Shown here: piece after piece, positions 5,844 through 49,171 of the stretch
Numbering within the stretch: position 1 is the stretch's first letter
Layout: the number at the start of each line of letters is the position of its first letter
Source: Obrimoposthia wandeli
Lineage: Eukaryota
Direction: 5' to 3'
DNA length: 64,000 bases
NCBI GenBank assembly: GCA_977020255.1
Contig: CDROCS010002096.1
Location: 1 to 64,000, forward strand
Made by a program: the position numbers and the translations under genes
Notes under the pieces: generated by a model
What the model saw: the letters and a program-made list of their open reading frames with translations, nothing else
What the model was told of the DNA's origin: nothing
The model's database searches: none

Positions 5844-6229
5844 TTATTGAGAAACTTGATGATACAACCATAAAAGACATAAAGGGCCACAATTAGTAGT
5901 TAATGGATTTTGAATACTAGTTTTATTATAGAATACATGGCGTTTCCCTTGAGTTTCTACATGTCTGATGAGTGCTGATAGATAATAAATTCCTAGGGGG
6001 TCGAATACGTGTACACTATCACGTCTCACGAATAGCGCAATCCAGTGTTCACCAGGTAAATTACTCGTATCAGTATTTACAACATATCCCGAGATTTTAG
6101 AATTGGTATTTTATCCATGGGAAACACTCCTTTGAATTTCTGTTCTAATAATTCAATTCCCACAGTATTAACCTGTTTAGAACTACATTAATTATTAAGA
6201 TTATTAAGATCAATAAACACTTACTTCAT
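5844..6229 (-). pseudogene. Adenain-like cysteine protease of E1; 42-nt intron 6224-6183; one frameshift
   Basis: ATG AA|gtaag...tag|T TCT gives MNSKQV. Catalytic motifs LPGEHWIA, FDPLG, QNPLTTNCG are present. Confidence 0.9.
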
Positions 6230-6983: not shown

Positions 6984-7835
6984 TCAATTGTTTATACCAT
7001 TAAATTTTACATTTTTTACTCTCCTTTCAATTATATGTCATCATACTGGACATGAATGTAACCTTATAGAACATGAAATACATGTTTTCACATGTCCGCA
7101 TGGTAGAAATACTACTAATATGATTATTTAAACATACTACACAATCAGGTTCTTTTAACATGTATGAAAGTATATTTATATATTGTTTTTCAGGGTTTAT
7201 TTCTAAATTAGATAAATCACAAATAATTTCAAATAGTAAATTGTATTCTCCATATTGCATCATTTTATATTTTAAAACAGATTTTATTCTATCTTTCGTG
7301 AAAAACCTTTTCAAGTATCTGATGTTGTTGGTATACATCTACATATTGAATTTTTCCGTAGTTAAAGGATATTCAATTATACAATCTGTTTCGATTTTCT
7401 CAATAACATTAGCATCATAATAGGGTTCTAAACATTTTATATAACATATATCAGGTAATTTTACAACAATATCTGATACATATACTTTTCCAATCAATGG
7501 TACATTTGAAACATTTAACTTTAAAAGAAATGGAAATTTAGGAAAAAATTCATATGTTGCTTCATTGGTTTAAGATATCATTCTCATTCGGATATTGCAC
7601 CTTGACAGTATATACATTTTACTTTATCAGTTGAATCATCATCATGTTTATAAAATCCAGCTTTAGCTAAATTATATACAGATTGTTTTCCTTTAAAATT
7701 TATAATTAACGATCTTAATCTTTAACTTTCAGATTTATATGTCCAATGTAAAACTTTCATTCTAGAATAATCTACTTTTCGTCTAAATAAAACATCATCA
7801 ACAGTTTTATAATGAAGTATATAATCAATAAGCAT
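6984..7835 (-). pseudogene. Inhibitor-of-apoptosis (IAP)-like gene: BIR domain plus C-terminal RING
   Basis: BIR: YKSES*RLRS...LAKAGFY...DKVKCIYC...E*E...P..QH. RING after a +1 frameshift: CVVCLNNHI-VVFLPCGHVKTCISCSIRLHSCPV**. Several nonsense codons. Confidence 0.85.
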
Positions 7836-13600: not shown

Positions 13601-14047
13601 CGGCTAGGATTTAAATAAAACGTATGTAGATTTCGATTTTATTTAATATGTTTCGAATTTTAAAAAATCACGCATTCACTGTAAAATATATTTCAACAGA
13701 AATTTTGATATTTCTTTAACTTTCAAATATAAATTTTAAACAATATTTTACTTACAATTTCAAAACGTTAACGTATGTGTGACCCAACCATCCATGAATA
13801 ATTTCCAAAATTAAAGTGCGTATGGAGTGTGGAAACACCAGTCAAAAAATTGAATTTTATTTATTTTCTGGAAGTACCTAAATTCCTTGTTTACTTTTCA
13901 AAATAACTTTTAAATAATTTCTATTTTTCTGCTATTTTTCGTTTACCGTATAAAAAAACCTATTTTGCAATATTAAACTAAAAAATATATTTATAAAACT
14001 TTAATTTATAATAAAAAAATTACAAAAGAAAAATTCAAAACGACATA

Positions 14048-14535
14048 AGTAGGTGGATGTGTCCGGTCTAATCCACACACCCCCTCCCCCCTTGTCCTTT
14101 AAAACCGTACATGTGTGTGGAGTGAAATTTCGTGTAGGCGTGTGGAGTGAAATTTCACTCCACACACATGCACGGTTTTAAAGGACAAGGGGGGGTTACC
14201 CCCCCCCACTAAAAATTTTTCGCGCCTTTCGGCGCGAAGGCTCGGGACAGATATAGGTCACAGACTAGCTCTGCGATGTACGGATGTCTCGCTCTCATAT
14301 ATGTCACAGACTAGCTCTGCGATGTACGGATGTCTCGCTCTCATATATGTCACAGACTAGCTTGGCGATGTACGAATGTCTCGCTCTCGTGTATATCACT
14401 AACTACCTCGGGTGATGGGTGAAAGTCGACGGGTGTTGGATGGAAACACCCAACCGACGACAACCCGCCCCTACGGGGCGGGCTCTATTCTCACGAAAAT
14501 AACAAAGATGGGCATCTACAGGCACGAAAAAACAT
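14048..14535 (+). repeat. Left TIR of E2, with nested palindrome and 3 x 46-bp tandem repeats
   Basis: Palindrome at about 14088-14193; 46-bp units start at 14251, 14297 and 14343; hairpin CCCGCCCC-TACG-GGGCGGG near 14464. Confidence 0.9.
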
Positions 14536-14683
14536 TACAAAAAATAAATTATTTGAATAAGAGGCTCTCATTGGACAATAAAAGAGGGTTAGTAAGATGT
14601 TTGTGTATATAAAGACACCCCCGTTCATTATTTTTCATAAATCAACAATCCCATTCTACAACAACGTTGACCTAGACGAAGAG

Positions 14684-16049
14684 ATGGAGGTTCAACTCTA
14701 TGGGGATCTCTCTCCAGTGCAGCAGCGAACGCCACCATCGTCGCAATACGTTGACTTAGATAGTCAAGAGTCATCGGTGGTGAGCGAAGGAGAAGCAGCA
14801 GCAAGAGCAAACCTGTTACAAGAAGAAGCCTCATTGGCCAGCTCAACTCCAAGAGAAGAACCAATGGACGTGAGAGGTGGGGTACAGAGATCCCAATATA
14901 TCGATCTGACTAGTCAGGATTCGATAGAGAATTGGGAAGACTGTACTCCCAGACAAAACACAAAACCCAATCGTCCGGCAACTTCAGCAGTAGCAGCAGG
15001 GAGATCCAATCTCTTCGACAATTTTGAGGCGGCAATCAAATGCCCCTGGAAATTGATCCCGCTGTCTCAACTGGAGAAAGTCCTCGCACCAGACTCAGAC
15101 AAGGAGCTGTTCACCGATGATGTACCTTCGGATTGGGAGGAGGACTTGACTTCATTTATCAACGAATGGATACAGCCAAGTAGGCGACGCCTATTCAACC
15201 GGTGGATAGGAAGCAAGCGGCAGTTAAGAAACCGCAACGCCATAGGGTCAAAACCCTCACTCGGAAGAAGGCCAAGTTGGTGAAACAGGCTAACCTGCCC
15301 ATCATTGAGGTAAATTATTTATATGTTTAAATTTTATTAATATTTTGCAGGAACCCGTCCAGATATTTGAGGAGACTTGGGGAGAAATTACTCCTTTCTC
15401 GCGGAAACGGACGAAGAGGGCAGAGGTGAAGAAGACGAGGCACTCGAGAAAATGTAAAACCTCAATTGGCCATTATTCTGAGGCGGTGATTGGCCAGCAG
15501 GAGATTCTCCAATCTCCAGTGGACGACGGACCAATCCTATATGAGAGGATCCCAGTCTCGCCGATCGAGATAAGTCCGCAATCAAGTCAACGACGCCTGC
15601 AGGAGACTGCTTCTCCTCATCCAACAACCAGCCAGAACTTGAAGAGGGCCTGGGATGAAGCTGGATTGGATGAATTCCTGGCGGAACTGGATTCACCGGC
15701 AATGCTTCCAGATTTGCGTGGGCAACAAGATGCCGTCTCACGCCAGCTTCAACGTGAGAAGGAGGAGAAACAGAAGAAAGCTCCGCGGAAGAGAAAGAGG
15801 ACTTCTATGACAGGGCCATCAACATCGGCTGCACCTCCTCCCAAAAAGTTGCGGCAACTATTGCCAAAACCTGAGGGAAGGACAATTGCTACAAAGCAAC
15901 CGGTGAAGCCGAAAAAGAAACCGGGCCGGCCAAAGAAGAAGGAACCAGTACCGATTTCTCCTATAATACTTAGTCGGAGGGATTACGACCCGAATGATCC
16001 CAATGATGACTTCGTAAAGATGTTTAAAAATATAATTTATAAAAATTAG
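14684..16049 (+). pseudogene. E2 early ORF1: disordered protein with SIM-like, acidic, NLS and AT-hook-like motifs; 41-nt intron 15310-15350
   Basis: TATATAAAG at 14606. ATC ATT GAG|gtaaat...ttgcag|GAA CCC splices in frame with ORF 15345. This join requires a frameshift and a stop near 15165-15185. Motifs: YVDLD, YIDLT, PRKRKR, KKPGRPKKK. Confidence 0.55.
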
Positions 16050-16243
16050 TTTCATATGTTTTCTTCTTAATATTTATTTTTTTAAATGTAGAAATACTAT
16101 CTTTAAGTTTATTTGCAATGATAAGTTATAGATTTATTAAACTCTCATTTGATAAATAAAAATATATCATTTAATTGGATTAAAAAATATCTTAAATTTA
16201 TATATATAGGTTCAAATTTATTAACCTCTTCATAATTAAAAAA

Positions 16244-16606
16244 ATGGAATTCATTAAAATGAAGAGTCTGGTGACGAAGATTGAAGCAAACATCAGAATA
16301 AATGAGAAGAAAGGGGACTTAAGAAAGAGGGTCCTCAACCAGAATTTGTATACTGCTGTCGCGACAGAGTGGAATCATCGGGTGGAGATACAGGATAGGA
16401 GGCTAGCAGAACGCCGTCGAATCGTGGAGTGGAATAAGAAGATCGAATTGGAAAAAAGGAAGGTGGATGAAAAAAGAAGAGAAGAGATGGAGGATGTTCG
16501 GCGAGCAGCAAGAAAGAGAATCCTCCAGATTAAACCGGAAGAGGGTCCTTCTACAAAAAAATTAATTTTTGATTATTATTTTGTCTTTATTGATTATGTT
16601 ACATAG
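16244..16606 (+). CDS. E2 early ORF2, coiled-coil K/R/E-rich protein with weak SERTA-like motif
   Basis: Intact 120-aa ORF with GC-richer coding composition; LRKRVLNQN. Confidence 0.6.
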   Translation: MEFIKMKSLVTKIEANIRINEKKGDLRKRVLNQNLYTAVATEWNHRVEIQDRRLAERRRIVEWNKKIELEKRKVDEKRREEMEDVRRAARKRILQIKPEEGPSTKKLIFDYYFVFIDYVT

Positions 16607-16686
16607 GAGAATTGACAAAATATACCAATCTTATCATGAAAGTACTTCGTTATAAACAACGGGATTTGCTGCAAATTTAGATAATT

Positions 16687-17175
16687 ATGCAGGAATATAT
16701 CATAGATTTTGAGGCTTTCATTAACAAAAATGGGGATTATATTATAAAAGAATTATGTATTATGGATGTATGCGACGTTTTTCATCCATTGCATTTCATA
16801 TTTCAAATAGATATCCCGTTTAAAAGTTTAGATTATAAGAAAAGATTTACTAATTTATATCTAACTAATTATTTTCATTTATTAAAATGGAAAGAAGGAC
16901 ATAAGGCTTTTTGTGAAATATGTATTTTCGATACTATTAAATCTAATTTTGATATTGAAAATGGATTTTTTTATGTTTTAGATGAAATGGATGGCAAAAA
17001 GTATAAGACTTTAAAAAAATATTTTTCCAAATTGAGGTTGAATACTTTAAATATTTCACGCGATCATCTATTAAAAATTCCACGAAATATTTGCTGTCCA
17101 TATTGTAATCATGGTGACCATTGCGCATATAAAAAATGTTTAAGTCTTTCTTATTATTACTGGAAATTCTTCTAA
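16687..17175 (+). CDS. E2 ORF3, putative DnaQ/DEDD-like nuclease-fold protein with C-terminal Cys/His cluster
   Basis: N-terminal IIDFEAF...IIKEL (DxE motif) and CCPYCNHGDHCAYKKC. Family assignment is from recalled pattern only. Confidence 0.55.
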   Translation: MQEYIIDFEAFINKNGDYIIKELCIMDVCDVFHPLHFIFQIDIPFKSLDYKKRFTNLYLTNYFHLLKWKEGHKAFCEICIFDTIKSNFDIENGFFYVLDEMDGKKYKTLKKYFSKLRLNTLNISRDHLLKIPRNICCPYCNHGDHCAYKKCLSLSYYYWKFF

Positions 17176-17400
17176 TTGGATAAATTCATTATTAAAATTT
17201 TACAATTATTTAGATAAACAATTCTTCTAATTGGAGAAATTCATTATTAAAATTTTACAATTATTTACAAATAAGCCATTTGATTGGAGGAATAAAAAAA
17301 TATTTTTTTCGACCATTTAACAGATAAACAAACCTTCTCAATTTTTTAATCCAATAGGAAAAGAGCATGTGTGCATAAATTTTTGTATATAAGCAAACAC
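17171..17400 (+). promoter_or_regulatory. pPolB promoter: 55-bp-period duplication, four CCAAT boxes and a TATA box
   Basis: TCTAATTGG(A)..AAATTCATTATTAAAATTTTACAATTATTTA at 17171 and 17226; ATTGG near 17284; CCAAT near 17352; TATATAAG near 17386. Confidence 0.55.
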
Positions 17401-17433
17401 TTTCTTCATTTAAATCCCCGACAATTTGAAATA

Positions 17434-20400
17434 ATGCCTATGGTAAGAATTTATTTTTATTATTTCCTTATTAATATTTATTATTTCAGATTACTTGTAA
17501 CCTATTCCCTGCGTATTGTGGTGCTTCGGCTCCACATGGAGGAGAGACCTGCATGGAGACAATGTCTGCATACTACCGGACAAAGTCTCAAGGTGTTCAC
17601 TTCTTTGTCTGCCCCTTCTGCAGAACAATGGAGGAGAAGGAGTTTCGAGACTTCTTCAGTGAACATCGAGCTCATCTATCGTGTTTCACGGCCAACAAGA
17701 AGAGGGATATCGTCCAGTTGGTGCGCGATTCGCAGGTCGCTCCACCTCCAATTCCAGTTGCAGTCGATCAACCCTTTTACGGTCCTGCGATTGGTCTCCC
17801 GGCTCCTGATTCTGACCCATCCACTCAAATGTCTGAATGGGTGAATGACATATCCCAGTCAGATTTCGAGATAGAGCAGTGCAGCGATAACTCATGGTTG
17901 GAGACCATCGAGGAATCCGGTTTTGTCGAGTCAACGGACGACAGCTGGATGGATTCCATCAATGAAGAGGACTTCATTCCAGCTCAACTTGGATTGTCAT
18001 CATTAGGTTTTTTTTTTTTTTTGTAAATTGTAATTATATATTTTATTTTTTAATATATATATTTTATTTTTTATTCAGGAAATACCGTTCTACAATCGGC
18101 ATCTGCTACAACAGATATGCCTCCACCATCGCGAGTGCCTACATCGATGTTAGCACGCCTTAGAGGTCATTTTTAAAAATATATTTATTTTTTAATATAT
18201 TAATTTCAGCACATGCATCATCGACGTCCACAACAGTCGCTTCAATGACATCAGCTACTGATGATCGAGTGACCATGACGTCTACAAGCGCATCATCTGC
18301 GAAACCAGCATTAGTTGCCTCACCTACAACACGAGCTGCAATTGCCTCAACATCGGCAGCATGTCCAATAGCAGCACCTACAACCTCAGCTGCGATTGTG
18401 TCAACTATTAATATAAATAGTTGTCTTCCCGTTCAATTAGGGGGAGGTTTGTCAGCGACAAACGGAAGAAAGAGGCGAGGCCAATTTCTTAATAAGGTCC
18501 CACCAAAAAAACGTAGAGAAAACGGTGCTACTATAGAGTATCACCTAAATAATAAATATGTTATAGTTAAGGTGCCATTAGGAAATGAAATTTTATTAAA
18601 TGTAGGTGTAGATTCAAATATTGAAAATCTTTTAAAATCAGAATTGACTAAATTAGGACAGGCTAAGGTTCAATTTTGCGCAACAGTGCAGTTTAAAAAT
18701 GTCAATGAGAAAACTAAAACTTGGGTAATTTCACATAAAGCAACTGTTTTCTATGATAATTTTGTAACTGAAATTGGAAGAAACCTGGATGAAAAAATTG
18801 CTAATTATAGCGAGTTAAGTAGTGGATGGACTCTAGTTAGAATTCACGATGTTAGCTTTGTTCTAACAAAGTTCACTGACATGATATATCTTTCGGGGAG
18901 TTCATACATTCCTTCACCTAGATCTCTTCAACTTTTACGTTCCATTGTTAACGTACAAAACAGTGATAACCTTTGCTTTCTGTATAGCGTGTTGGCCATC
19001 CTCGAAAGGGATGTAATTACTGAACATAGAGAGCGTGTCAGTAAATATACCCCTTTTTTAAATGAATTGCAGTATCATGGAATAGATTTTCCAGTTAAAT
19101 TAACTGCGATATCAAGATTTGAACATCTTAATAACTTGAGTATTAATGTATTCAAATATAATACTGATATCCCAGTTAATGTAACAGATGAAGAAATTTT
19201 TAAAAATCCTTTTGTAGATGTAATTTATAGGAGCAAAAATGAGGTGACTCAGGTCAACTTAATTTTGCTCGAACATAATAAAAAATTCCATTATGCTGCA
19301 ATTCCCAATTTAGATCGTCTTCTAAATTTAGATATTGGAGCCTTACCGGTTAGGATAAGGTGTAAGTGGTGTCATAGATGTTTGCATGCTCTAATCCGAG
19401 CTCTCTTACAGCAAACATCTGACATTATGTTCACTGAATCCTGATGACAATACGCTATATAGCATGCCTAAGGATAAGGATTTAAAATTCAGGGATTGGG
19501 CAAAATGCATACCCGTGGAATTCAGGGTGTATGCAGATTTTGAGTCAATTTTAGCATTGCACGACCAGTATGAGAGTATTCACCTACCGGCTTCGGCAGG
19601 ACTACTATTCTTAAGCCCCAATATTACCCAGTATCATAAATTTTCCGGTCCAAATTGTATTTTAGATTTTATGTTAAAATTAGAGGAATTAAGAACAACA
19701 ATTGTCAAACCGTGGTATGATCTCAATGCTCATCAAGCAATGATCATGACAGGCATAGACTGGGTTAATTTTAATTCTTGTAGATTATGTTATTTGTGTG
19801 GAACCCAGTCTAAGTTAGTCAGAGATCACGATCATGTTACGGGGCGATACTTGGGAGCGGCATGCAACCTTTGTAACCTTGGCCGTCGTCTCCCTAAAAA
19901 ACCACGCATTCCCATCGTGTTTCATAACCTTAAAGGATATGATTTGCATCATATACTTAAATACGCGTTGGGTACATTAAGCTCTTGGGAAATTTCATGT
20001 ATACCTCAAACTTCAGAGAAATATTAATCTTTAACTGCATATACTGAATTCTGCAGTTTAAGATTCATAGATTCTCTGCAGTTTTTGAGCAGGTCTTTAA
20101 AAAATTTAACGGCATCTTTAAATGCATGGCCAATTACACAGTCAGTGTTCCCAGCTTCGGTTAACGATAAGGGGATTTTTCCGTATAAATTTGCGAAAAC
20201 TTTCGCAGATTTAGAAAATACAACGGAAATCCCACCCATAACTGAATTTGAAAGTCTAAGTCTTCAAGACTATAATGAGGCCCGTAAATTTTGGGTGAAT
20301 AATTGTCGAAATCTTTAGAATATATGCTTTATTATATGAAGTTAGACATTTATCTTTTAGCTGATGTTTTTGAGTCCTTTCGTGTAAAGTCTTTAGCAGA

Positions 20401-21820
20401 AGATGGGCTAGATCCCATGCATTTCTTTATTTTACCTGGTCTTTCATGGGCAACAGCAATAAAAACTCTTAAAATTAATATCGAGTTACTGCAAGATCCC
20501 GCGATGTATCAAATGTATGATTATGGTATACGCGGTGGAATGACTTTTGTCAACAAACATCATGTTGTCAAAAATCAATCCACAGAGATTCTGTACATCG
20601 ATATTAATAATTTGTATGGGTGGGCGCTTACTCAACCTCTACCTCATGCCAACTTTAAGTGGGTTTATGATGTGGATCAGTTGAATAAGTTGATGACAGA
20701 TTTGGCTACTGTTGATACAGTTTCATCCGACGTTGGCTATTTGGTTGAGGTGGACATAAAGATCCCTCCCAATGTGCATGATAAATTAGATGATTTTCCA
20801 GCAGCGCCTGTTCATCAATGCCCACCTAATTCAAAGGTTAAGAAATTATTGTTAACCCATGAAGACAAGTTGAATTATGTTGTGCATTGGCGGCTTCTTC
20901 AATTCTACTTAAAGTTGGGAGCGAAAGTTACTCGAATTCATCGTGCTATAAGCTTCAGTCAAAACTTTGTGTTTAAAGACTATATTGAGAAGAATTCAAG
21001 AAAACGTAATTTGGCCACTAGCAAATTCGATCGAGATTTTTACAAGTTAAAAAGTAATAGTCTCTTTGGAAAAACGGTAGAGGACTTGCGGAAACGTATT
21101 TGTCTACGGTTTTGCAATGATGAGCGTAAACTAATAACATATACTAGCAAGTACAACTTCAAGCGTAATCTTTCAATTGCATATGATTTGGTAGCAGTGG
21201 TATTAGGAAAACAGAGTATTTGTCTCGATCGACCGAGTTATATAGGTCAAACGGTTTTAAACATTTCCAAACTCAGAATGTACAAGCTCCAATATATAGA
21301 ATTAGAGAAATATCGCCACGAATTCAATTGTGAGATTAAAATCGCAGCTGGGGACACTGACTCTTTCTTTTTAGAATGTAGGAATGTTAGTTTAAATAAT
21401 CAATTATTACCAGCAATGTTTAGGGACAACTTACTAGATACCCATAAATATCCCGCTAACCATCCTCTACACTCTATGAGTTTAAAGGACATTATCGGGA
21501 AATTTAAGGATGAAAGCGAGGGACAGGTTTCGTATGATGATTGTATTTTCCTACGCCCTAAATGCTACAGTTTACATACATCTAATAATACATGTTCAAT
21601 GAGAGCAAAGGGTGTTGGAAGAAACAATCTTACACATGAGGCCTACCGGAAAGTTTATGATACTGGGTGTATTGAAAGCGTTGAGCAAACTAGATTTATT
21701 TCAAGAGCCCATCAACTGTATTCCCATAAATCAACAAAGATCGCTTTGAGTAGTAATGACGACAAGCGCTTTTGGGTAAAAAAGAACGCTAGCTTGGCTT
21801 ATGGACACTTCAGAATTTAA
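17434..21820 (+). pseudogene. pPolB of E2 with spliced N-terminal extension; exons 17434-17442, 17490-18006, 18079-18165, 18210-21820
   Basis: All three GT-AG introns (47, 72, 44 nt) keep the frame. vOTU-like NVQNSDNLCF...HYAAI; YADFES; RDHDHVTG; FHNLKGYD; YIDINNLYG; KSNSLFGK; DTDS. Frameshifts near 19390 and 20312; TAA at 20025. Confidence 0.93.
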
Positions 21821-22096
21821 ACGGTTTTCATATTTTGATTTTTTTAGTTTAGTTTTTTTAAATTTTAGATCCCTATGGCACCTAGACTCTAACTTATTTG
21901 TTATTGCAATACTTTTTAGGATGGACCTTATTTATTATGCCTTATCTTTGCTGACATATCTCATTGTGATGTTGTTTTTAATAAATGTATTAAAAAAAAA
22001 TTCGTCTTATGTCTTTTATTATTTTACCCTTATATTTTTAGGGATTTAAAAAATAATTCAAAATAAAACATTTAAAATTTTTATTTTTATAACACA

Positions 22097-22477
22097 CTAA
22101 TCGTTTTGCAACGATAACCATAAAATACATAAATGTCCACAGTTTCTCGTCGCAGGATCCTGATATTGTATCTTGTTGTAAAATACTCTTCTTCGTCCTT
22201 TTTGAATAGTTGAAACAAGTTTGTAGGGATAATACATTGCAAGTGGATCAAATACATGTATTGTCCACTCTCTAACATAAATAGCTATCCAATGTTCTCC
22301 TGGTAAATTCGAAGTATGAGTATTGATAATGTAACCTCCATATTGAAAAAATGGAATCATATCAATAGGATAAACTCCATTGAATTTATCACCCAGGACC
22401 TTCTCTGCTGATTTTTTTACTTGTTTTGAACTAAATAAAATTTAATAAATATAAATTTAAAATATGTCTTACTCCAT
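22097..22477 (-). CDS. Adenain-like cysteine protease of E2; 5-nt first exon, 42-nt intron 22472-22431
   Basis: ATG GA|gtaag...ttag|T TCA gives MDSKQVKK...GVYPIDMIP. Catalytic GEHW, FDP, QDPATRNCG. ORF intact. Confidence 0.92.
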
Positions 22478-22478
22478 T

Positions 22479-23709
22479 CTATAATATGACAGTTCTGTTT
22501 TTATTGATTTGTATTTCCGAATCAAATACTCCGTAAATAAGCACCGTAGTAGGATGGGTTAAAGCTGCATTGAACTTAATTTCTAGTCGTAAATTTCCAT
22601 CCTTTGGTAGTTGGCATTGGTTTATATCAAAGTCTGGTGCTAAAACAAATGTGAAGAACGGGCAGCTATTTTTAAAGTCAGTGAAAGAAATACCATTGTT
22701 TATATTTTTATCTAGTTGACCCAAATTCCGAATAATAGATTGGGTATAAGCCAAAGCATAAGCGTTACCTTCGAAATCTGTTTTATATGTTTCACGACAA
22801 TCAGTATTTCTTGAAAGTGTCACTGAACCAACATTAAGATTGTCAAATTGAGTTGCATCTGTCGTATAATTTCCTAGAAACTTTGCAGTTTTTTAAAAAG
22901 AAATTAAAATGAATTTCGGTAATCTTACATCACCAAAAATTTGATCCTTATTAAAAGCTTATGTACCCGTACCTAAAGAATAAGATATAAGTTTAGTTTC
23001 TCTAATAGGATAACAAGCATTGTTTTTTTCCATTCCTATATTATGCGCCATTAAAACTGACTGCTCGGTTTTAACTCTTCGAACATACAATTTTGCATCC
23101 AAAATATCAAGTCTAGGTTTTATAAATGTCCGTGCTTATCAAAGAAAATTTCCATTTATTATGTTTCAAACGAAGATGTACATTAACACCGGGAATTAAA
23201 TATTTCGGTTGTTCAAAGAAATTCAATCTCAAAGACCCACACATTTCGTAAGCTTTAGAACCTGCAATCCATTCTTTGCGAGTTGCAACAGTTTTATCAT
23301 AACCAATGGTTGCCAAATTAGTATTTTGAGTATCAGTACTATAATTCAAAAGACTTTCAATCAAAGCTTTATGAGCATAGGAAGAATTTCCACCTTTAAT
23401 TTTGACATTATTAAGAGTAACAATGGCATCATTAAATAAAGAATTAAAGAGATAATTTACAGGTGTTACATCGGCATTTTCATCTAAATTAGTACCATCC
23501 CGATTTAATACTTTTATTTGAACATAAAGCAAAGTATCATTCAAATCTAAATACTCGCTATTGGAACCATTAATATTAAATTCTAAATCGGTTAAAGTGG
23601 TTCCTGAAACTGAGTTAACTAGGAATATTTCTTCAAAGGAAGCATTATCTACAACTACTTGTGGAAGCGGTTTATCAAAAATACATAATTCAGTTTTGGC
23701 GCAACTCAT
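22479..23709 (-). pseudogene. Major capsid protein (double jelly-roll) of E2
   Basis: MSCAKTELCIFDKP, LDLNDTLLY, KYLIPGV, GNLRLEIKF. One frameshift near 23120 and two in-frame TAA codons near 22960 and 22893. Confidence 0.92.
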
Positions 23710-24083
23710 TTTGCAAATATTGTTCCTTCAACTTTCTTACGTTTGTTTATATTAATTTTTAGCTTCTTTTTACTTTTAAATCCACTACCTCCTTGGCTTT
23801 TATTTGATTTACGTTTTCTAATCAAATTTACAACTTCAGGTAAAACATTATCAAGTTCATCAAGCGCATGCTTCTTAAAAGTTGGTATTAGTTTATTGTC
23901 ATTAGATGAAAGGTAATCCTTTCCTAATTTTGATATAAATCACCCGAGTCTCTTTAAAAGAGGAAAGGCAAATCTACCTAATGTTCTAAGCCAGCCAGAT
24001 CAGTATTGTTTACCAACAAAATATGGTAATTCTCCACCTTGTTGGCTTTGACTATAAGCTTCAATTATTGCTGGATTCGCCAT
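23706..24083 (-). pseudogene. Small basic virion core-type protein with Q-x-G-G sites
   Basis: MANPAIIEAYSQSQQGGELPYFVGKQY*SGWLRTLGRFAFPLLKRLG*...SQGGSG plus a K-rich tail. Its stop overlaps the MCP ATG (ATGA). Not in the ORF track because of two stops. Confidence 0.8.
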
Positions 24084-25115
24084 TTTGTTTTCTTAAATGT
24101 ATTGTTAAACTTGTCTTGGCTCCGTACGTGAAATCTATTAGTTGTCCGGAATCATCTCTAATATTTACTTCAATATTGTTTATAGAAAAGAGAGAAACTG
24201 GAAGATACATTGGTTGATCTATACACATACCGACAGTGTCCCCATCTCTAGTTTCATTTTTAGATATCCATATTATTCTCAAAAGTGGAACTCGCTGTCC
24301 TCCTACAAGCGTTGGTTCTATTAAATTAGTATAAATATATAAATGATTAACAGCATTTAAATGTTTTGCCTTATTTTTAGCTTTTATGGTTTTTATTGTA
24401 TGGGTTTCAAAGGTATTTCTGTTTAAATCAAGGTTTTTAGCGAGTTTATCATCAAATGAAACTCGTTTTATATTGCTCTTTACTGTAAACGTTAATTTAC
24501 CATTTAATGTTTCACATTTATCGAAATATTCACTACATTCCTTCTGTATTAATTTACAGAAATTCACTTCACTATCTATTTTATAATCTTTTGAAAACGT
24601 TTTCAGTTCCACAGTCTTTGGTCTCGTTTCAAGTAACAAAACTTTTGCTACTCTACCAGGAACATTTCTAACCAAATTAGATGAGATAATATCCCGTTTA
24701 TTACGAGCTACTGTTTGTTCACTATCAAAACTGAATTGAAGAGCTTCTTTTTTAGATTCAAAATTAATTTTCATAACTTGAAGAAATTTTAATCGATTTT
24801 TAAATCTGACTTTGTTATTTTCAAATATTACTTTCACTTCTTTATCTATACAATTGTAATAGAATTGTCCTTTACTATCAAACCCGATCACAACTTCAGT
24901 TGTTTTTTCATGATCAACTTCTTTTGTAAACGAAATATGTGAGTTTTTTTGATGGTAATTGGAGAATAATAAAAAGAAAATTCTGTTAAAGCCGCTTCCC
25001 ATTCTCCTTGGAGATTTATAGAATTTTCCCAATCGATAATAAAGCTACTAGCGTCATTATCTGGTTGAGTCTTCGGACATCCGTTACTTGGTAAAACCAT
25101 ATACATAGACTTCAT
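24061..25115 (-). pseudogene. Minor capsid (penton-like) protein of E2
   Basis: MYMVLPSN...QGEWEAALTEFSF, then a frameshift near 24930, then YIYTNLIEPTLVGGQRVPLLR...YLPVS...IEVNIRDDSG. Confidence 0.88.
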
Positions 25116-26191
25116 ATTATATTAGATGCTGATATCCTAGTTGGGTCTGAATAACCATGCCATTTAACAAAGTATTGTTTATGTTTACCTGTACCCTTAG
25201 ATTTTAATATTTTTTGAATACGGAAAACGCTAGGTTTATTTGATATTACTTGTAATTCTTGCTCATAAAATTTACCGTGAACGATATTATTGTCAGCATC
25301 TTTAATAGTATACATTATTGGATTACTCTTTTGATCAATTTTACTTATACAAAATATTTCATCGCTCCAATTCTGATCAAAGTTTTTAATAAATGGAGTA
25401 GAGCTAATTTTCGAAATTCGAACATATTCGTTTTTCTTATATTAAGCTTTTTTAATTTTATCTTTTTTATTGCTGTTCATCCAAATTTCCATAGAGTTTT
25501 TATTAGTAACATCAACAGGTCTCATTCCCTTGAGACCTCTATGTTCAGAGTGATTATATGCATGTATTATTTTAGGTAAAACTTGGATCCATTTTTTATT
25601 TCCTTCTTTTGTGAAATACTTTTTTATTCGATCTCTTAGAGTACGATTAAATCTTTCTACTACTGCTGCTTTGTATTGTGAAAATACACAGTAATGATTT
25701 ATATTATTTTGTTTAAATAATGATTGAACTTGCTTATTATAAAATTCTTTTCCTAAATCAGTTTGCACATTTTGTGGAATGTCCTCTTTTAATATTTCTT
25801 TAATGGCTTCAAGCATAGCTATTGAAGACTTTGCTTTAACTGGAATTGCACGAGCAAACCTGCTAAATACATCAATACATGTTAAAATATATCGATATCC
25901 CTTATTAATGGAAGAATATGGGATCATCTCCATCAAATCCATTTGCCATAAATTATTAGGACCGCTGGTTTTGTAAGCTCTAGTTGGAAACCTTCTCATC
26001 GGCTTGTTCAGACTGTAGGCTAACTGGTCGCTCAGCCATTTCTGCGTTTTCTTGTAATTTTGTTTTGTTCTTTTTGCTAATTTTGAAACTCCTGTGTAGC
26101 CAATTGGATCTTTTGGATTGAACCATATCTTCTCCATTACAACAATTTGAATAGAAAGAAAATTTAAGTTTAAGTAAAGAAGGGCTAGCAC
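25112..26191 (-). pseudogene. Retroviral-like (rve) integrase with C-terminal chromodomain-like region
   Basis: WQMDL, IDVFSRF, QTDLGKEF, VERFNRTL; tail IQKILKSKGTGKHKQYFVKWHGY. One in-frame TAA at 25442; the frame continues to 25112. Confidence 0.93.
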
Positions 26192-26223
26192 CCATATCTT
26201 TAGCTGATTTTAGAAATAATTGT

Positions 26224-26550
26224 TTATGAACGTGTCGCAGCTATAATACTACTGATAATTGAAGCAACTGGAATAACAGCCCCTATGAAACCACCATTCT
26301 GTTTAAGAATAATATTTCGTTTCCTTTTTTTACTTTTTACATTAGCAATATCTAGAAGAGTTTTTCTATATTTCTTTAATATATTTTTACGATTTCCAAC
26401 TTTTACTCGACCCAAAACTATATTATACAAAACTTCCAATAAATCATCTACAACAAAGAATGGAAATGCTTTAAGAATAATCATTCTCTTATTAGAAGAG
26501 GCTTTGACTAAAGCTTTAAAATAGGGTATGCTTCTTTGTATTTTCTTCAT
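26224..26550 (-). CDS. Conserved Polinton small protein (PX / gasdermin-X-type) with amphipathic tail after QNGG
   Basis: LLEVLYNIVLGRV...KQNGGFIGAVIPVASIISSII; intact ORF. Confidence 0.7.
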   Translation of the reverse strand: MKKIQRSIPYFKALVKASSNKRMIILKAFPFFVVDDLLEVLYNIVLGRVKVGNRKNILKKYRKTLLDIANVKSKKRKRNIILKQNGGFIGAVIPVASIISSIIAATRS

Positions 26551-26729
26551 TTTAATAAAAAAGGTTCAATTTAAATATTGTTTATATTCGAAGCCATTTA
26601 AGTTTTATTTTATTTTTAACTAATGATTTGATTAATTTTTTCACTTCTTTTTTCTTAATGATTCTTTTTTTTGATTTCTTAGATTTTACTTTACGTTTTA
26701 CTATCAACTTTGTAAAAGGCATTGCGAAT

Positions 26730-27378
26730 TTATTTTTTATAATTGTTCTCTATTTGTTTATAAACAGTTACTCCCTTAGAATTAAATATGTCTGTTAAAA
26801 CACGTAAATCATCTGGGCAAGCTTGTGTAAAGTCAATAAATATATACCCATGTGCTTGTTTAGCAGCATCGTGGAATGAATCAACTAGAAAGTTCTTATT
26901 TTGAGGAAATGCCTGTCTGGCCACAAAATCAACAACTGTTTGATCTCTAGGATTTTTAAATAAAACTAAGTAATGTACATTAAGATTTCTTGTTCTATGG
27001 TGACCTCCTTTGGTGAAACAGATTTTGAGTGATAAATATAACTGTTACTTCACGATGTCTTGCAATCTTTGTAAATAAATTATTAAAGTCCGATTCCTTG
27101 TTAGCCTCCTCATACAAATCATCAATTATTATTACATCTTCTTTTTTCAATCTTTCACAACAATTTGCATCAAATCCTTCAATAAATTTTATACCCTTCA
27201 ACTTGCAAACTTCTGTTTTGGTTAACCCGCTTTCCCCTCCTCCACCATGATGCCAATAAATATTTTTGAAACTAGATTTGAAAAGAGAATCATTTTGCAA
27301 CAATTTACAGACGAAATGTGTCTTTCCACTTCCACTTGGGCCAACTATTTGAAATACAGCATTATTATTTAGCTCCAT
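26730..27378 (-). pseudogene. A32/FtsK-like genome packaging ATPase of E2
   Basis: Walker A GPSGSGKT, Walker B IIIDD, RH..VTVIFITQNLF. A frameshift near 27000 leads into LNVHYLVLFKNPRD...GYIFID. Confidence 0.92.
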
Positions 27379-27415
27379 TGCATATACTCTTTCATTTTTA
27401 ATATTGTTTATATTA

Positions 27416-27688
27416 TCATAGAAGTTTCCTTATTGAAATGTACAATGTTAGAGCTATTGTAGATGAAATACAAAAATTAATTAATGAATATTTGACTATA
27501 ATTTTATTTATTTGTGTACGATTTCTAAATTCTCGAATAACGTGTGATCTAACCAATATTTCAATGTTATCTCTTGTTATATCATTATTTTTTAATTCTG
27601 ATAAAATTTCTTTACCCCTAATTTTTCCAGAAAATATTTCATCGGCAAGCCGATCCACTTCATTGTCTCTATTTATAGTATTATTCAT
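27416..27688 (-). CDS. Small conserved Polinton protein with hydrophobic C-terminus
   Basis: 90 aa from ATG 27688; homologue at 6807-6959. It appears fused to TBP only through two extra T residues near 27722. Confidence 0.65.
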   Translation of the reverse strand: MNNTINRDNEVDRLADEIFSGKIRGKEILSELKNNDITRDNIEILVRSHVIREFRNRTQINKIIVKYSLINFCISSTIALTLYISIRKLL

Positions 27689-27716
27689 TTGAAACAATAA
27701 GTTTAAACGGGTTTGT

Positions 27717-28218
27717 TTATAGAAAAAAGATAACAAGATGTAATAAGATATATTTTCTAAAATCAAATCAGCTATATCTGGATAATCAAAATTTTTCAAT
27801 CCCAATATCATAACTTTACCACTGGAAAATATATTTACACATAGCGGTTTAAACTTCAAATAACTGAGAGCAGGAAAAATTTCTGGTTCAAACATGCATT
27901 CTTCTTTCACTTTCTCTGCAGTTTTAAAAAGATTTATCTTTTTCCCAAGATTAGCCGAAATCGTGATTGATTGTATTGCAGTGATTTGAATTCCAAATGG
28001 TAAATTGAACCCAAGCATGGGTATTTTGCATCCCATAACACGACAATTTCCTAAAGAATTCAATATGAAAATAAAATAAAAAACTAACCTGTAGGAAAAA
28101 TAACAACTGTGAAATTGTCAAACTTTTCTACATATTGTCTCGGCTTCCATTCATTGAATGGTAAGTACGAAACATCATCTTCTGTTCTACCTTTATAATT
28201 TATATTTACGAGTTTCAT
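27717..28218 (-). CDS. TATA-binding-protein-like gene of E2; exons 28218-28089 and 28050-27717; 38-nt intron
   Basis: Spliced product MKLVNINYK...TVVIFPT-G-NCRVMGCK...IQSITISANLGKKINL...FEPEIFPAL...VNIFSSGKVMILGLK shows both TBP repeats. The natural stop is inferred from E1 and E3 (both end FL*). Confidence 0.88.
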
Positions 28219-28464
28219 TAGACTGAAATTGTATTCTGTAAAATCTTCTTTATATATGTCTGAACCTGCTTTTTTATTGGACGTTTCTTGTAATTATCTT
28301 GCAAACCTATTATAATTGGATGATATATTTAGTCCAATCAAATTCAATGCTTTTGTTATATTAACCAATGAGATTCATGTTTTTGTTAGAAATTAGTATA
28401 AAAGAATGCGCCATTGGAGGACAAATCACAGTAAATGCATTCATATCAAAGACAATTATCAACG
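28219..28464. promoter_or_regulatory. Divergent promoter between the TBP-like and SSB-like genes
   Basis: TATATAAAG on minus (28256-28248), TATAAAAG on plus (28397-28404), five CCAAT/ATTGG boxes (28276, 28315, 28334, 28365, 28413). Both TATA boxes are retained in E3. Confidence 0.65.
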
Positions 28465-28911
28465 ATGGACGATAGCCAACGGGTATTAGGCGATGACGAA
28501 GAAATGTTTGAAGAATCGGATAAGGATATGTATGAAGAAGTGAAACAATATTTCAAATACAAATACAAATTCTTGAAGAAGGCTCAGCTGATTGCTTTAG
28601 TAAATCCTGTGACAATTGAAAGAAGAAAGTTTAGCTACTATCTATCCGGTATTCAAAAACCTGATTTTCAATATCTTAAACAGAAAATAGAAAAGGCAGT
28701 TCCGAATTTTACTTTCAATAAGAACGAATTTTATATCCGAGGAGCCGATGAAGCATTTCTAGATGACTATGGAAGATATGTTGATATTGATGCGTTTCCG
28801 AAAAAGAAGCAATGGACTGTAACAATTCGACTTTATGGTTACAAGAAAGATGAAATGGGAACAAAGTTGCCTATGTGGAAAATTGAACGTGCTCATATTT
28901 CTATGTTTTAA
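28435..28911 (+). CDS. Conserved Polinton protein, possible SSB, copy 1
   Basis: Intact ORF, likely start 28465; homologous to 8651-9151 and to E3 44744-45187. Confidence 0.7.
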   Translation: MHSYQRQLSTMDDSQRVLGDDEEMFEESDKDMYEEVKQYFKYKYKFLKKAQLIALVNPVTIERRKFSYYLSGIQKPDFQYLKQKIEKAVPNFTFNKNEFYIRGADEAFLDDYGRYVDIDAFPKKKQWTVTIRLYGYKKDEMGTKLPMWKIERAHISMF

Positions 28912-29043
28912 CTTTTGTGTGTAATAAATTGTAATCGGTTTTACTATGTTTCTTTCATTTAATAATCAGTTTTATTTGTATCTTATTTATATCCTATGTG
29001 TATTTTTTATAAACATTGTTTTTAATCAGTTTCCTTATTTTAG

Positions 29044-29422
29044 AATGGATAAGAGATGTGTAGCAAATTTTTATTATTCAGAAAGAATTTCAAAAGGAAA
29101 ACTATGTAATATATTAAAGAGGCATCAAATTATACGAATTATGAATCCTGTGAAAATATCAAAAGTGGAGAAAAAATATCTCATCGAAATTTTAACAACA
29201 ACTGATTTTGATCAACTGAAAAATATTTTGGGATTTTACATTCCTGATTATGTATATGAAGGAAATTGTTTCGAGCTTGAAACTGATCCCAGTCTGGATT
29301 TTAAAGATGATCTAGGATATTTGATTGCTCCAATTCTAGATGAAGAACTATGGAATATCTCAATACGTCTGAATGGATATTTTGCTGATGACGGGAAAAT
29401 GCAGCCTCTGGACTTTGAGTGA
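29044..29422 (+). CDS. Paralogue of the preceding gene, copy 2
   Basis: Starts MDKRC after an AG acceptor-like site. WNISIRLNGYFADDGKMQP resembles WTVTIRLYGYKKDEMGTKLP. Also present in E3. Confidence 0.65.
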
Positions 29423-29517
29423 AGCCAATATGTTGTTTTATGTTTAATAAATATTTTGAAAAATAATTTTGTCTCGTATTTTATTTTTGCTCCTCTAAAT
29501 TATATAGATCTGATCGA

Positions 29518-30287
29518 TGTTTTTCGTGCCTGTAGATCAAGAATGAAGCCCGCCCCGAAGGGACGGATGGTGTATGTTAGGGTATGACACGGGTCGTTTA
29601 CATTTGTAGTTGTGAGAGTAGCATGTTTTTGTAGTTATTTTCGCGAGAATGGAGNNNNNNNNNNNNNNNNNNNNNNNNNNNNNNNNNNNNNNNNNNNNNN
29701 NNNNNNNNNNNNNNNNNNNNNNNNNNNNNNNNNNNNNNNNNNNNNNNNNNNNNNNNNNNNNNNNNNNNNNNNNNNNNNNNNNNNNNNNNNNNNNNNNNNN
29801 NNNNNNNNNNNNNNNNNNNGCCCCAAAGGGGCGGGTGGTGGTCGGTTGGGTGTTTCCATCCAACACCCGTCAACTTTCACCCATCACCCGAGGTAGTTAG
29901 TGATATACACGAGAGCGAGACATCCGTACATCGCAGAGCTAGTCTGTGACCTATATGAGAGCGAGACATTCGTACATCGCAGAGCTAGTCTGTGACATAT
30001 ATGAGAGCGAGACATCCGTACATCGCAGAGCTAGTCTGTGACCTATATGAGAGCGAGACATCCGTACATTGCAGAGCTAGTCTGTGACCTATATCAGTCC
30101 CGAGCCCTTCGCGCCAAAAGGCGCGAAAAATGTTTAGGGGGGTACCCCCACCCCCTGTCCTTTAAAACTGTGCATGTGTGTGGAGTGAAATTTTACTCCA
30201 CACACCTACACGAATTTTCACTCCACACACCTACACGGTTTTAAAGGACAAGGGGGGTGTGGATTAGACCGGACACATCCACCTACT
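29518..30287 (-). repeat. Right TIR of E2, with 4 x 46-bp repeats; assembly gap 29655-29819
   Basis: Reverse complement of the left TIR. Units start at 29911, 29957, 30003 and 30049. About 100 extra nt at the inner edge. Confidence 0.9.
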
Positions 30288-30344
30288 GACATAGTATTAA
30301 ATAACAAATAATTTTGCTTGAGGAAGTTTTAAAAAAGAAAAAGA

Positions 30345-43583: not shown

Positions 43584-46020
43584 ATTATATGCATGTATTA
43601 TTTTAGGCAAAACTTGGTTCCACTTTTTATTTATTTCTTTTGTTAAATACATTTTATTCGATCTCTTAAAGTACTATTAAATCTTTCAACTACTGCTGCT
43701 TTGTACTGTGAAAATACTTACTAGTGATTTATATTATTTTGTTTAAGTAATTATTGAACTTGCTTTAACTAGAACTGCACGAGAAAACCTGCTAAATACA
43801 TCAATACATGTTAAAATATATATATATCCCTTATTAATGGAAGAATATGGAATCATCTCCATCAAATCCATTTGCTATAAATTATAAGGCCCACTGGTTT
43901 TGTATGCTCTAGTTAGAAACCTTCTTCTCGTCGGCTTGTTCAGACTGTAAGCTAAATGATTTGAAACAATTATTAATTTAAACGGGTTTGTTTATAGAAA
44001 AGATAACAAAATGTACCAAAATATATTTTCTAAAATCGATTCAACAGTGTATTGATAATCCAAATTTCTCAATCCCAATATCATAAGTTTTCCACTGGAA
44101 AATATATTTACATGTAGCGGTGTAAACTTCAATATCTGAGTACAAGAAAAAATTTCAGGTTTAAACATGCATTCTTCTTTCATTTTCTTTGCAATTTTAT
44201 AAAGATTTATTGGTTTCCCGATATTGCCTTAAACTGTGATATATTGTATGATGTTGATTTAAATTCCAAATGGTAAATTAATCTCATTCAACGAAGTTTT
44301 GCATCCCATAACACGCCAACTTCCTAAAAATTATATATGAAAATAAAATAAAAACTAACCTGAAGGAAAAATTAAAACTGTGAAATAATCAAACTTTTTC
44401 ATCTATAGTCTCAGCTTCTAATCAATGAATGGTAAGTGCGAAATATCATCTTCTATTCTTCCTTTATAATACATATTTACGAATTTCATTAGACTCAAAT
44501 ATTTTTCTGTAAATTGTTCTTTATATATGACTGAACATGCTTTTATAGTTAACATGTCTTGTAAATTTCATGCAAACCTATTATAATTGGATGATATAAT
44601 TCTTCAAATCAATTTCATTCTTTAATATGGATTTAGTCGAATCAAATTGAGGTTAATGTCTTTGTTACAAATTAATATAAAAGAATGAGCCATTGGAGGA
44701 CAAATCATAATAAATGCATTCATATCAAAGACAATTATCAATTATGAACGATAGCCAATGGATATTGAGCGATGATGAAGATTTGGAAATGTGTGAAGAT
44801 TCGGATAAGAATATGTATGAAGAAGTGAAACAATATTTCAAATCCAAAGTTAGATTCTTGAAGAAGGCTTAACTGATTGCTTTAGTAAATCCTGACAATT
44901 GAAACAAAGATGGTTTAACTATTATCTATAAAATATTCAAAAACCAGATTTTCAATATCTTAAACAGAAAGTTGAAAAGGCAGTTCCAAATTTTACATTC
45001 AATAAGAACGAATTTTATATCCGAGGAGCTGATTTTAGATGAATATAGAAGAAAAATATATGTCGATGCGTTTCCGAAAAAGAAGCAATGGACTGTAACA
45101 ATTCGGCTTTATGGTTACAAGAAAGATGAAATTAGAACAAAGCTACCTATGTGGAAAATTGAACATGCTCATGTCCCTATGTTTTAACTATTTCTTTTAC
45201 CATGTTTATTTTATTTTGCATGTAATAAATTGTAATCAGGTTTATTTATTTCATAATATTTGATTCGTATATGTATTTTTTTATAAACATTGTTTTTTTA
45301 TCAATTTATTTATTTTAGAATGGATCCTCTTCTGAGATATGTAGGAAATTTTTATTATCCTGAAAGAATTTCAAAAGGAAAACCGTGTAATATATTAAAT
45401 AGGCATCAAATTATGCGAGTTATGAATACTGTTAAAAGATCAAAATGGAAAAATAAATATCCAATTGAAATTTTAACATCTGATATTTATCAATTGAAAA
45501 ATATTTTGGGATTTTACATGACTGATTCTTCCAGCTTGAAACTGATCCCAGTCTGGCCTTTAAAGATGATCTAGGTTATGTGATTGCTTCAATTTTAGAT
45601 GAAGAACTATGGAATATTTCAATACAACTTAATGGATATTATGCTGATGACGAGAAAATACAGCCTCTTTGAACTTTGAGTGAAACTAATATGGTGTTTA
45701 TATCTGATTTGTTTAATAAATGTATTGAAATGAAATTATATAAATCTGACCTAGATATTTTAAAATACATGTAGTAATTTATTAATCTAAAATATGTTCC
45801 TTCTTAAAAATAGTAGTCATATATTCACATAAAAGTGTTATCTGAAATCTCGTCTACGATATATCGACGAGGTCAATATGGATTTCCGTGGTCTTCTCTA
45901 ATCAATTTTGATCAAAATACACATGCACTAAATTTCACTCCACACACATGCACGGTTTTAAAGGACAGTTGTACTCCCTAAGGCCGAGGGGGTGGATTAG
46001 ACCGAACATATCCACCTACT
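43584..46020. mobile_element. Deleted copy E3 of the E2 Polinton family: integrase fragment, TBP-like, two SSB-like genes, right terminus
   Basis: Clear nucleotide similarity to 25555-26025 and 27686-29460. Ends TGGATTAGACCGAACATATCCACCTACT at 46020. No left end found. Confidence 0.92.
43992..44489 (-). pseudogene. TBP-like gene of E3 with in-frame stops; same intron as E2
   Basis: ECMFKPEIF...VNIFSSGKLMILG...LSFL*; CCTTCAG|gttag...ttag|GAAG. Confidence 0.85.
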
Positions 46021-47949: not shown

Positions 47950-49171
47950 GAAAAAATATCAGAGAAGGATTACAATGAATTTAAAGTTGATGAAATGGTT
48001 AAAAACATCAAACGGTTTCTTTCGGGAAACTTATTTGAAAAGAATTCTAAAAAGATTGTTATGATTTCGTCCGGTGGCACTACAGTGCCGTTGGAAGCCA
48101 AAACTGTACGGTATTTGGATAATTTTAGGTACTCTATTTTTACTTCTATGTAAAAATTTATATATTTAGTTCAGGCACGCGTGGGGCTGTTTCGGGCGAA
48201 CACTTTCTTAAAGAATCTTATTTTGTTATATTTTTCCACAGAAAGGGATCGTTGACACCGTTTAAACGGAAGTTGGACAAGGATATTATACTGGACAGTT
48301 TAAACGTTAATGATTCCACACAGAAATTGGAAATCTCGTCGAATTATTCGAGTCTATTTCTGGATTTGATTAATGATTACAATAGTTATAGTAAGAATTT
48401 TGATATTTTTTATATTTAATGCAATAAAAGACGATGACTTCATGCTGACATGTTTTTTTTAAATTTAATTGTTCATAGCATATTTATGAATTGATAATTA
48501 TCAATATTTTTCTAAATATACACACAGGATCATTTTATGAGCATATTATAATATATTACATGTTTATCTCTCAATCACACAGAAAATCGGCTGTTGTGCA
48601 TCGATTTCATCACAATTCAGGAGTACCTTGTGAAGCTGCAGCATATTTGTCTCACTCTAGCTCCATTTGAAAGCTCTGTTTTGCTTTATCTGGCAGCTGC
48701 CGTATCTGACTTCTACATTCCCAGTGAGAATCTGTCTCAGCACAAGATTCAGTCAAGCGACGGCCCTCTTAATCTGCGTCTGCAGATGGTGCCTAAGATG
48801 CTGGGACCGCTCACCTGCAACTGGATACCCCACGCATTTATCACTTCTTTCAAAGTAAATTTTTTTGTAAAAATTAAAGACTGATATTGTCTGCTACAAC
48901 AAACTATTGCCTGATTAATCTCGTGTCTCAGTTGGAGACAGATCCAGACTTACTGCGCGGCAAATGTGCGGACTCGTTGGCCCGCTACCGTCACCACCTT
49001 GTCATCGGCAACATACTGGAGACCCGCAAACGAGAGGTGTGGTTCGCGAGTGGTGTGACGCCCAACTTTGTCATGACTCACATCACTCTGGATGACGACA
49101 GCAAGGAGATCGAGCAACTGATCATTCACAGACTTGTCGAACTTCATGAGACATTTCAACAAAAAAGCTAG
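47950..49171 (+). CDS. PPCS: Phosphopantothenate--cysteine ligase; exons 47950-48128, 48170-48390, 48583-48854, 48932-49171; first exon not located
   Basis: SSGGTTVPLE, YLDNFSSGTRGAVSGEHFL, LYLAAAVSDFYIP, VPKML, SFK|LETD, VIGNIL. All splice junctions are in frame. Confidence 0.93.

Follow-up and report, generated by a model that had tools for sequence, protein, structure and literature searches.

Animal Polintons or Mavericks (PMC8097293; 10.1101/2022.07.12.499685), including adintoviruses (PMC8502044), are described in passages of these reports with the same equipment as the element analyzed here, namely inverted ends, a 6-bp target duplication, pPolB, an rve integrase, an A32-type ATPase and an adenain-like protease located after the capsid gene. 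In the passages of PMC8097293 on a vertebrate set, "intact" elements are defined by intronless frames and are reported to contain no introns, in agreement with Kapitonov and Jurka 2006. In those of the report on nematode Mavericks (bioRxiv 10.1101/2022.07.12.499685), the core genes are intronless and introns are confined to captured cargo genes, and in those of PMC10120064 prokaryotic gene callers were used for surveys of Polintons and related endogenous viruses on the ground that introns are absent.

Spliceosomal-type introns inside Polinton-like elements are described in passages on dinoflagellate eupolintoviral proviruses (PMC12166617), where they are repeated transposon-derived introners, mostly judged to have been inserted after integration and mostly outside coding regions; the introns reported here, in contrast, are unrelated in sequence, conserved in position across lineages and inherited with the element. 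Mirusviruses, pandoraviruses and chloroviruses are intron-rich in the passages of PMC12768974, and introns in their late morphogenesis genes are read there as a ratchet tying the virus to the nucleus; these DNA viruses also need the host spliceosome, but they are different virus groups. Group I introns are reported in a passage of PMC12220804. No description of position-conserved spliceosomal introns in Polinton core genes was found in passages of PMC10748475, PMC12166617, PMC8502044, PMC6431247, PMC12220804, PMC5803895, PMC10120064, PMC8097293, 10.1101/2022.07.12.499685, PMC12768974, 10.1101/2024.03.25.586562, PMC8363768, PMC8532177 and 10.64898/2026.10.13.758929. Repbase entries and supplements could mention them.

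In adenoviruses, each late gene has an upstream acceptor to which a common leader is spliced, whereas the intron described here interrupts coding sequence. Ginger and many cut-and-paste transposases contain introns, and mobile DNA that is copied without an RNA step keeps them, but these transposons are single-enzyme elements without virion genes. As Polintons encode no RNA polymerase gene, any of them would be expected to be transcribed by RNA polymerase II of the host, and this is not the new point.

In the Polintons analyzed here, the protease, pPolB, TBP-like and ORF1 genes are very probably interrupted by short GT-AG introns, which would be removed by the spliceosome of the host, and the protease intron was probably gained once, long ago, in the ancestor of the clade and has since been carried by transposition. 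An intron-free core is a described trait of Polintons, not a defining one, and in contrast to the described elements, core genes (protease, pPolB) carry introns here.

Results

Element E2 and the surrounding genome

The window, i.e. the whole stretch of DNA analyzed, comprises 64,000 nt of Obrimoposthia wandeli, whose genome is A+T-rich and 1.35 Gb in size. The element and its capsid gene are located as follows.

14048..30287, no strand assigned, element E2, a Polinton/Maverick copy whose ends are inverted and which is flanked by a 6-bp target duplication (14042-14047 and 30288-30293)
22479..23709, minus strand, probable major capsid gene, directly upstream of the protease gene here and in relatives, broken in E2, no intron seen

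E2 is 16,240 bp (~16.2 kb) long with inverted-repeat arms of up to 229 nt at 96% identity, and several of its genes are broken by stops or frameshifts. An integrase of retroviral type (Pfam rve, E 1.1e-13), an A32-like packaging ATPase (Pox_A32, E 1.5e-06) and a TBP-like protein (Pfam TBP, E 1.6e-11) were recognized, and the family profile of the adenain-like protease matched adenovirus proteinase at E 6.6e-06 with the catalytic His and Cys aligned. The C-terminal frame of pPolB in E2 gave an endonuclease VII match (E 1.3e-05) and no Pfam polymerase match, and contains what we take to be polymerase motifs; a piece of pPolB from element E1 matched DNA_pol_B_2 at E 2.2e-10. The capsid candidates (double jelly-roll major and single jelly-roll minor) gave no Pfam match and are putative, conserved genes standing in the expected order; 22479..23709 is presumed from gene order and motifs to be the major capsid gene. 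Judged by its sequence, E2 is a Polinton. Elements of this kind abound in the genome: 28,398 protease candidates (candidates, not copy numbers) were obtained in the first search, and the 19 stretches retrieved hold several distinct families.

Some further features were observed. A conserved ORF at 16681-17172 (plus strand), which gave no Pfam match and presumably carries an acidic exonuclease-like motif, lies before pPolB in E2 and after the protease in many relatives. Motifs that we take to be degraded BIR-like and RING-like ones occur at ~7050-7700 (minus strand), in the part of E1 that separates the TBP-like gene from the capsid end. Decayed fragments at ~36200-37550 (plus strand) resemble by eye the exonuclease part of another pPolB type, and nested Tc1/mariner-type elements at 52676-55706 contain 21-nt tandem repeats within their inverted ends.

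Protease intron in E1 and E2

The protease gene was resolved into the following parts in the two elements.

22473..22477, minus strand, E2 protease exon 1, coding part (ATG plus 2 nt), the ATG lying 1 nt past the capsid-gene stop
22431..22472, minus strand, E2 protease intron of 42 nt with GT-AG ends and 90% A+T, in phase 2 of codon 2
22097..22430, minus strand, E2 protease exon 2, adenain-like cysteine protease, open frame
6225..6229, minus strand, E1 protease exon 1, coding part, the ATG overlapping the capsid-gene stop
6183..6224, minus strand, E1 protease intron, 42 nt in this copy and 33-45 nt across the family
5844..6182, minus strand, E1 protease exon 2, frameshifted in this copy

An earlier, sequence-only reading had let both proteases begin with a 5-nt exon followed by a 42-nt GTAAG intron. 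The places, the length and the GTAAG...TAG form after ATG plus 2 nt were recovered, but the 5 nt are the coding bases and not the whole exon: with just 5 coding bases before the donor, and with the capsid stop 1 nt before the ATG (E2) or overlapping it (E1), exon 1 must overlap the end of the capsid gene. The possibility that an acceptor at the capsid stop is followed by a micro-exon of 6 nt was rejected, the AG not being conserved. The intron interiors of E1 and E2 were no more alike than shuffled sequences (z -0.73), as expected from the claim that they are otherwise unrelated, and among 11 lineages only 2 of 55 pairs of interiors exceeded z 2 against shuffles (median z 0.02), with GT(A/G)A and AG kept. 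Conservation between E1 and E2 holds for the position in codon 2, but the equal length of 42 nt is partly coincidence, since the E1 family ranges over 33-45 nt. In that family (30 copies examined, 27 scored) 42 nt was found in 11, with GT kept in 26 and AG in 27; in the E2 family (60 examined, 57 scored) the intron measured 42 nt in 53 copies and 41 nt in 4, with GT kept in 55 and AG in 57.

Precise intron-free copies of the E2 family were sought genome-wide by a pattern of exact exon flanks with a gap of 0-30 nt, and none was found among the 98 matches, the shortest gap being 23 nt. These short-gap matches (e.g. L061-L080) mostly contain a stretch of ~28 nt in which both intron ends are retained. 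One ~28-nt variant, shorter than any host intron placed, recurs in about a dozen E2-family copies, so this variant has spread. Four read runs of one sample, which resemble DNA and are uninformative on splicing, covered the protease intron at the depth of the exons over 22095-24100; in the same DNA-like runs substitutions and indels of the copy type were frequent, and a joint at the protease intron was not among the 15 listed of ~500.

When read unspliced, the protease ATG gives Met-Lys/Glu-stop, a frame of two codons in all 17 intron-bearing loci. An alternative in-frame Met as the start was rejected: the stretch ahead of the first downstream Met can be aligned both with intron-free homologues and with the helix and strand at the N-terminus of adenovirus proteinase, and as this helix and strand precede any downstream Met, no alternative ATG can substitute for exon 1. 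In-frame ATGs that would make the introns unnecessary, which had been named as evidence against the earlier reading, were thus not found for the protease.

Host introns for comparison

Introns of host genes were placed by motif and frame, including those in the following genes.

48129..48169, plus strand, host intron of 41 nt in a gene that we take from its motifs to be CoaB/PPCS-like
59117..62695, minus strand, host CCCH zinc-finger gene with introns of 44 nt (62695-62652), 42 nt (59255-59214) and 48 nt (59164-59117)

The 11 host introns measured 41, 42, 44, 47, 48, 48, 54, 77, 171, 192 and 1039 nt. Six of the 11 lie within 41-48 nt, and in this small sample, placed by motif and frame, the view that host introns include many of that size held. 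Many element introns, at 35-40 nt and with the common 28-nt variant, are below the shortest host intron placed (41 nt, n=11), and their A+T content is 81-95% as against 62-83% for host introns. They possess a U2-type GT(A/G)AG-like donor and an AG acceptor, and their removal restores the reading of intron-free homologues for the protease, the TBP-like gene and the first pPolB intron. The element introns appear to belong to the same small class as the host introns, being somewhat shorter and richer in A+T.

Codon-2 intron across families and public contigs

Comparison of intron positions across copies and relatives, which had been proposed as a check, showed that the codon-2 position recurs. 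In this genome the intron is common to five families (E1, E2, L155/157/162, L164/166 and L159), the last three having it at the same base of codon 2 with a length of 39-44 nt. Public contigs were scanned with an alignment of the closest protease homologues, by which 38 metagenome loci and 1 viral locus were obtained. By eye, 9 of these 39 loci, in about six distinct lineages, have a codon-2 intron of 37-43 nt, in 26 the frame continues uninterrupted to a Met a few codons further upstream, and the remaining 4 are truncated or ambiguous. Lineages sharing the position are 44-58% identical. Two intron-free relatives, L169 and L170 (49-51% identity to E2), begin with an uninterrupted Met-Asp-Ser straight after the capsid stop, which is exactly the joined reading. 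In IMG/VR, a single-protein scan gave 7 short matches of 21 residues and the alignment scan 1 weak match. When a third family was sought with P0001, all 30 loci (30/30) were E2-family copies.

Among 23 protease loci scored by script, an ATGnn|GT..AG intron of 37-44 nt before codon 3 was present in 17, and the other 6 had an in-frame Met-Asp/Asn start. The background motif, ATGnn|GT[AG]..AG of 36-48 nt, which is slightly stricter than the form scored in these loci, occurred at 16 of 61,840 positions of non-element DNA and at 5 of 30,240 in E2. These results bear on whether the A+T-rich stretches are spacers or products of decay, with the genes starting at other codons. The copies in the window are damaged and no junction read was seen in the DNA-like reads, as such a reading would expect, but it is highly improbable in view of the exact colinearity with intron-free relatives at three genes, the conservation of GT/AG ends across lineages, the chance rate of ~2 in 10,000 positions and the conserved N-terminal helix that a downstream Met would lose.

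In a protease tree of 49 rows, all intron-bearing rows fell in one group of 25 (support 85/94), which also holds the intron-free L169, L170, P0010, P0014 and P0016. A tree of 20 rows, restricted to loci with DNA and drawn without F5 (whose frame stops early), near-duplicates and proteins without DNA, placed the intron-bearing rows with L169/L170 on one side of a branch (56/91), and two changes suffice on it; holding the ten intron-bearing rows together was not rejected (p-AU 0.18). One old gain of the protease intron would be the simplest reading, and the tree fits one gain with losses as well as a gain after the split of L169/L170.

TBP-like gene

The intron of the TBP-like gene was located in E2 and in a degraded copy, E3.

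27722..28218, minus strand, TBP-like gene of E2 with two exons and a start codon placed by inference at 28218
28051..28088, minus strand, TBP-like intron of E2, 38 nt long, splitting the Gly codon of the IFxxG motif in phase 1
44324..44359, minus strand, TBP-like intron in E3, 36 nt

The length of 38 nt previously given for both copies applies to E2 (28088-28051), but the intron of E3 has 36 nt; in E1 the junction position lies under N. The 20 element loci L121-L140 comprise 9 that are intron-free, 10 with an insert of ~35-41 nt at the same Gly, in three families and with different sequences, and 1 that is rearranged; L165 and L179 likewise lack an intron in the TBP-like gene. The two canonical TBP genes of the host (L111, L112) are uninterrupted at this site, which argues that the TBP-like intron arose in the element. 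Its acquisition together with a captured host TBP gene was rejected, the introns of L111/L112 lying elsewhere and the element fragment giving no BLAST match to them.

Members of this Polinton clade regularly carry a diverged TBP-like gene, as observed in the set of window 27722-28218 (minus strand), L121-L140, L165, L179 and proteins P0166 and P0167: it occurs in at least five families here with mutual identity of 40-56%, and the fragment compared gave no BLAST match to host TBPs. Among titles retrieved for polinton and TATA-binding protein, none treated a TBP-like gene in Polintons. A second TBP-like gene, in L114 and L115 (contigs C60 and C1092), is intron-free, has both repeats, is closer to cellular TBP and lies beside pPolB-like and integrase-like fragments; it is possibly an independent capture by another element. 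The host TBP is of what we take to be the metazoan type, by which the genome was judged to be that of an animal; its paralogues L111 and L112 (contig C238) are arranged head to head ~1 kb apart, each with an intron of 47-48 nt at the same site.

pPolB and ORF1

Four further introns were located in the left arm of E2.

17443..17489, plus strand, pPolB intron 1 of 47 nt, in phase 0 behind a coding exon of 9 nt (ATG at 17434)
18007..18078, plus strand, pPolB intron 2, phase 1, 72 nt here and 74-80 nt in sister copies
18166..18209, plus strand, pPolB intron 3, phase 1, 44 nt here and 44-48 nt in sister copies
15310..15350, plus strand, ORF1 intron, 41 nt, phase 0, with further intron candidates in sister copies

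The pPolB introns agree in length with the frame-preserving 47, 72 and 44 nt read earlier, and the four exons chain with 0 stops in the implied frame as compared with 1-56 in the other frames. A counterpart of intron 1, 43 nt long, stands right after the ATG in family F5 (L159 having an intron of this type); intron 1 is absent from L165 and L169, and L169 aligns without a gap, by eye, once the intron is removed. At least one of the three pPolB introns was found by motif in 16 of 20 sister left arms, with lengths of 47, 74-80 and 44-48 nt. Exon 3 remains 87 nt in four sister copies while the flanking introns change to 75-76 and 47-48 nt, and is disturbed in two damaged ones (L213 and L225). The Cys/His module runs on into the polymerase without a break in other families, which supports the E2 exons as the polymerase N-terminus. 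The metagenome relatives L167, L168 and L169 each have two other introns, of 41-45 nt, in the same module, so L169 is intron-bearing though without the protease intron. In family F4 (L164, 8700-8830) the first intron is replaced by an in-frame stretch before the pPolB N-terminus that ends in LRGG, which we take to be a ubiquitin-like motif.

The ORF1 intron had been read as a frame-preserving one of 41 nt. The length stood, whereas the frame is preserved in sister copies and not in E2, which is without ~416 nt present upstream of the intron in the sisters. It recurs in 6 of 21 compared stretches, and the sisters show further frame-keeping candidates. The 72-nt and 44-nt introns of pPolB and the ORF1 intron were recognized by frame, composition and ends and lack an intron-free homologue. 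No intron was seen, by eye and from continuous matches, in the integrase, ATPase and capsid frames. Over the left arm (from ORF1 to the pPolB start), copies L206-L225 with a ~97% identical protease differ by 5-18% and form two subtypes by number of ORF1 introns; this divergence suggests module exchange or faster change of the arm.

With these positions in hand, the single-origin reading can be set against one in which introns were gained repeatedly at favored sites or inserted after integration in the manner of introners, as in dinoflagellate proviruses. Such repeated gain would account for the unrelated intron interiors, for the AG|GT proto-splice site at the insertion point in the intron-free TBP-like gene, for pPolB introns at differing places among relatives and for the weak support in the trees. 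We nevertheless regard it as improbable: the protease intron is present in all 57 scored E2-family and all 27 scored E1-family copies and hence predates their spread, its site is not a proto-splice site, and distant proteases outside the clade all lack a codon-2 intron. Nor were many near-identical introns at unrelated sites found, the protease intron interiors being unrelated among the 11 lineages, and the introns, unlike introners, have no family likeness.

Gene starts in public annotation

That introns hide gene starts from ORF-based annotation, as had been suggested, was seen in database protein P0006, which starts at a downstream Met of the L178 protease. P0002, P0004, P0007 and P0013 appear to begin with read-through intron letters, which are hydrophobic and typical of intron ends (the DNA was compared for P0006 only). 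As surveys assume that introns are absent or define intact elements by intronless frames, a clade with core-gene introns would be mis-annotated or scored as dead, an effect visible in public proteins.

Discussion

Old spliceosomal introns of this element lineage are well supported by comparison, i.e. by the shared position at 44-58% identity and by intron-free relatives. The proposal that the lineage has long been transcribed by RNA polymerase II and spliced is upheld to this extent, whereas splicing itself is what we infer from it. After nuclear transcription by host RNA polymerase II, removal of the protease intron would create the Met-Asp/Asn-Ser/Thr start of the family; the unspliced ATG yields Met-Lys/Glu-stop, so that without removal the maturation protease would not be produced. 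Low cost and the rarity of precise loss most likely explain why the introns persist: the element being copied from DNA to DNA, they would be inherited and seldom lost exactly, forming a ratchet by which the element is tied to hosts that can splice introns of ~40 nt. With an intron in a late gene, the cycle would need the spliceosome, a ratchet like that proposed in passages on mirusviruses (PMC12768974). Gains and losses of the other introns would have taken place separately in individual lineages, close to 5' ends and in N-terminal regions that vary.

The protease intron might instead be kept as a switch, along the lines of the splicing-level control suggested earlier, its retention silencing the maturation protease with the upstream capsid frame intact, so that splicing would time particle maturation. 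It is the sole intron common to all five families with a protease, those of the TBP-like gene and pPolB coming and going, and the two-codon frame from the unspliced ATG is seen in 17 of 17 intron-bearing loci. The junction lies, by eye, within ~10 nt of the capsid stop, where by the established rule a junction would not be expected to bring about nonsense-mediated decay of a shared message. This role is rather unlikely, however, as any phase-2 intron with a GT(A/G)A donor produces this stop, without any need for selection, as close relatives (L169, L170, P0014) are intron-free, and as the intron interiors contain no conserved motif. A broader picture is similarly doubtful, namely a widespread undescribed clade of animal Polintons, obligately dependent on the spliceosome and equipped with its own diverged TBP, in which the codon-2 protease intron would be a splice switch timing virion maturation against capsid synthesis and a minimal intron size would restrict the clade to hosts splicing ~40 nt.

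Core genes of these Polintons carry introns despite being described as intron-free in the passages cited above, but spliceosomal introns are already known from other nuclear DNA viruses. The codon-2 intron provides a position marker for dating and ordering lineages, and sister families that differ in the introns they hold make a compact system for following intron gain and loss. With an intron in a late virion-maturation gene, the whole cycle would depend on the host nucleus and spliceosome, and this may limit the hosts to which the element can jump.
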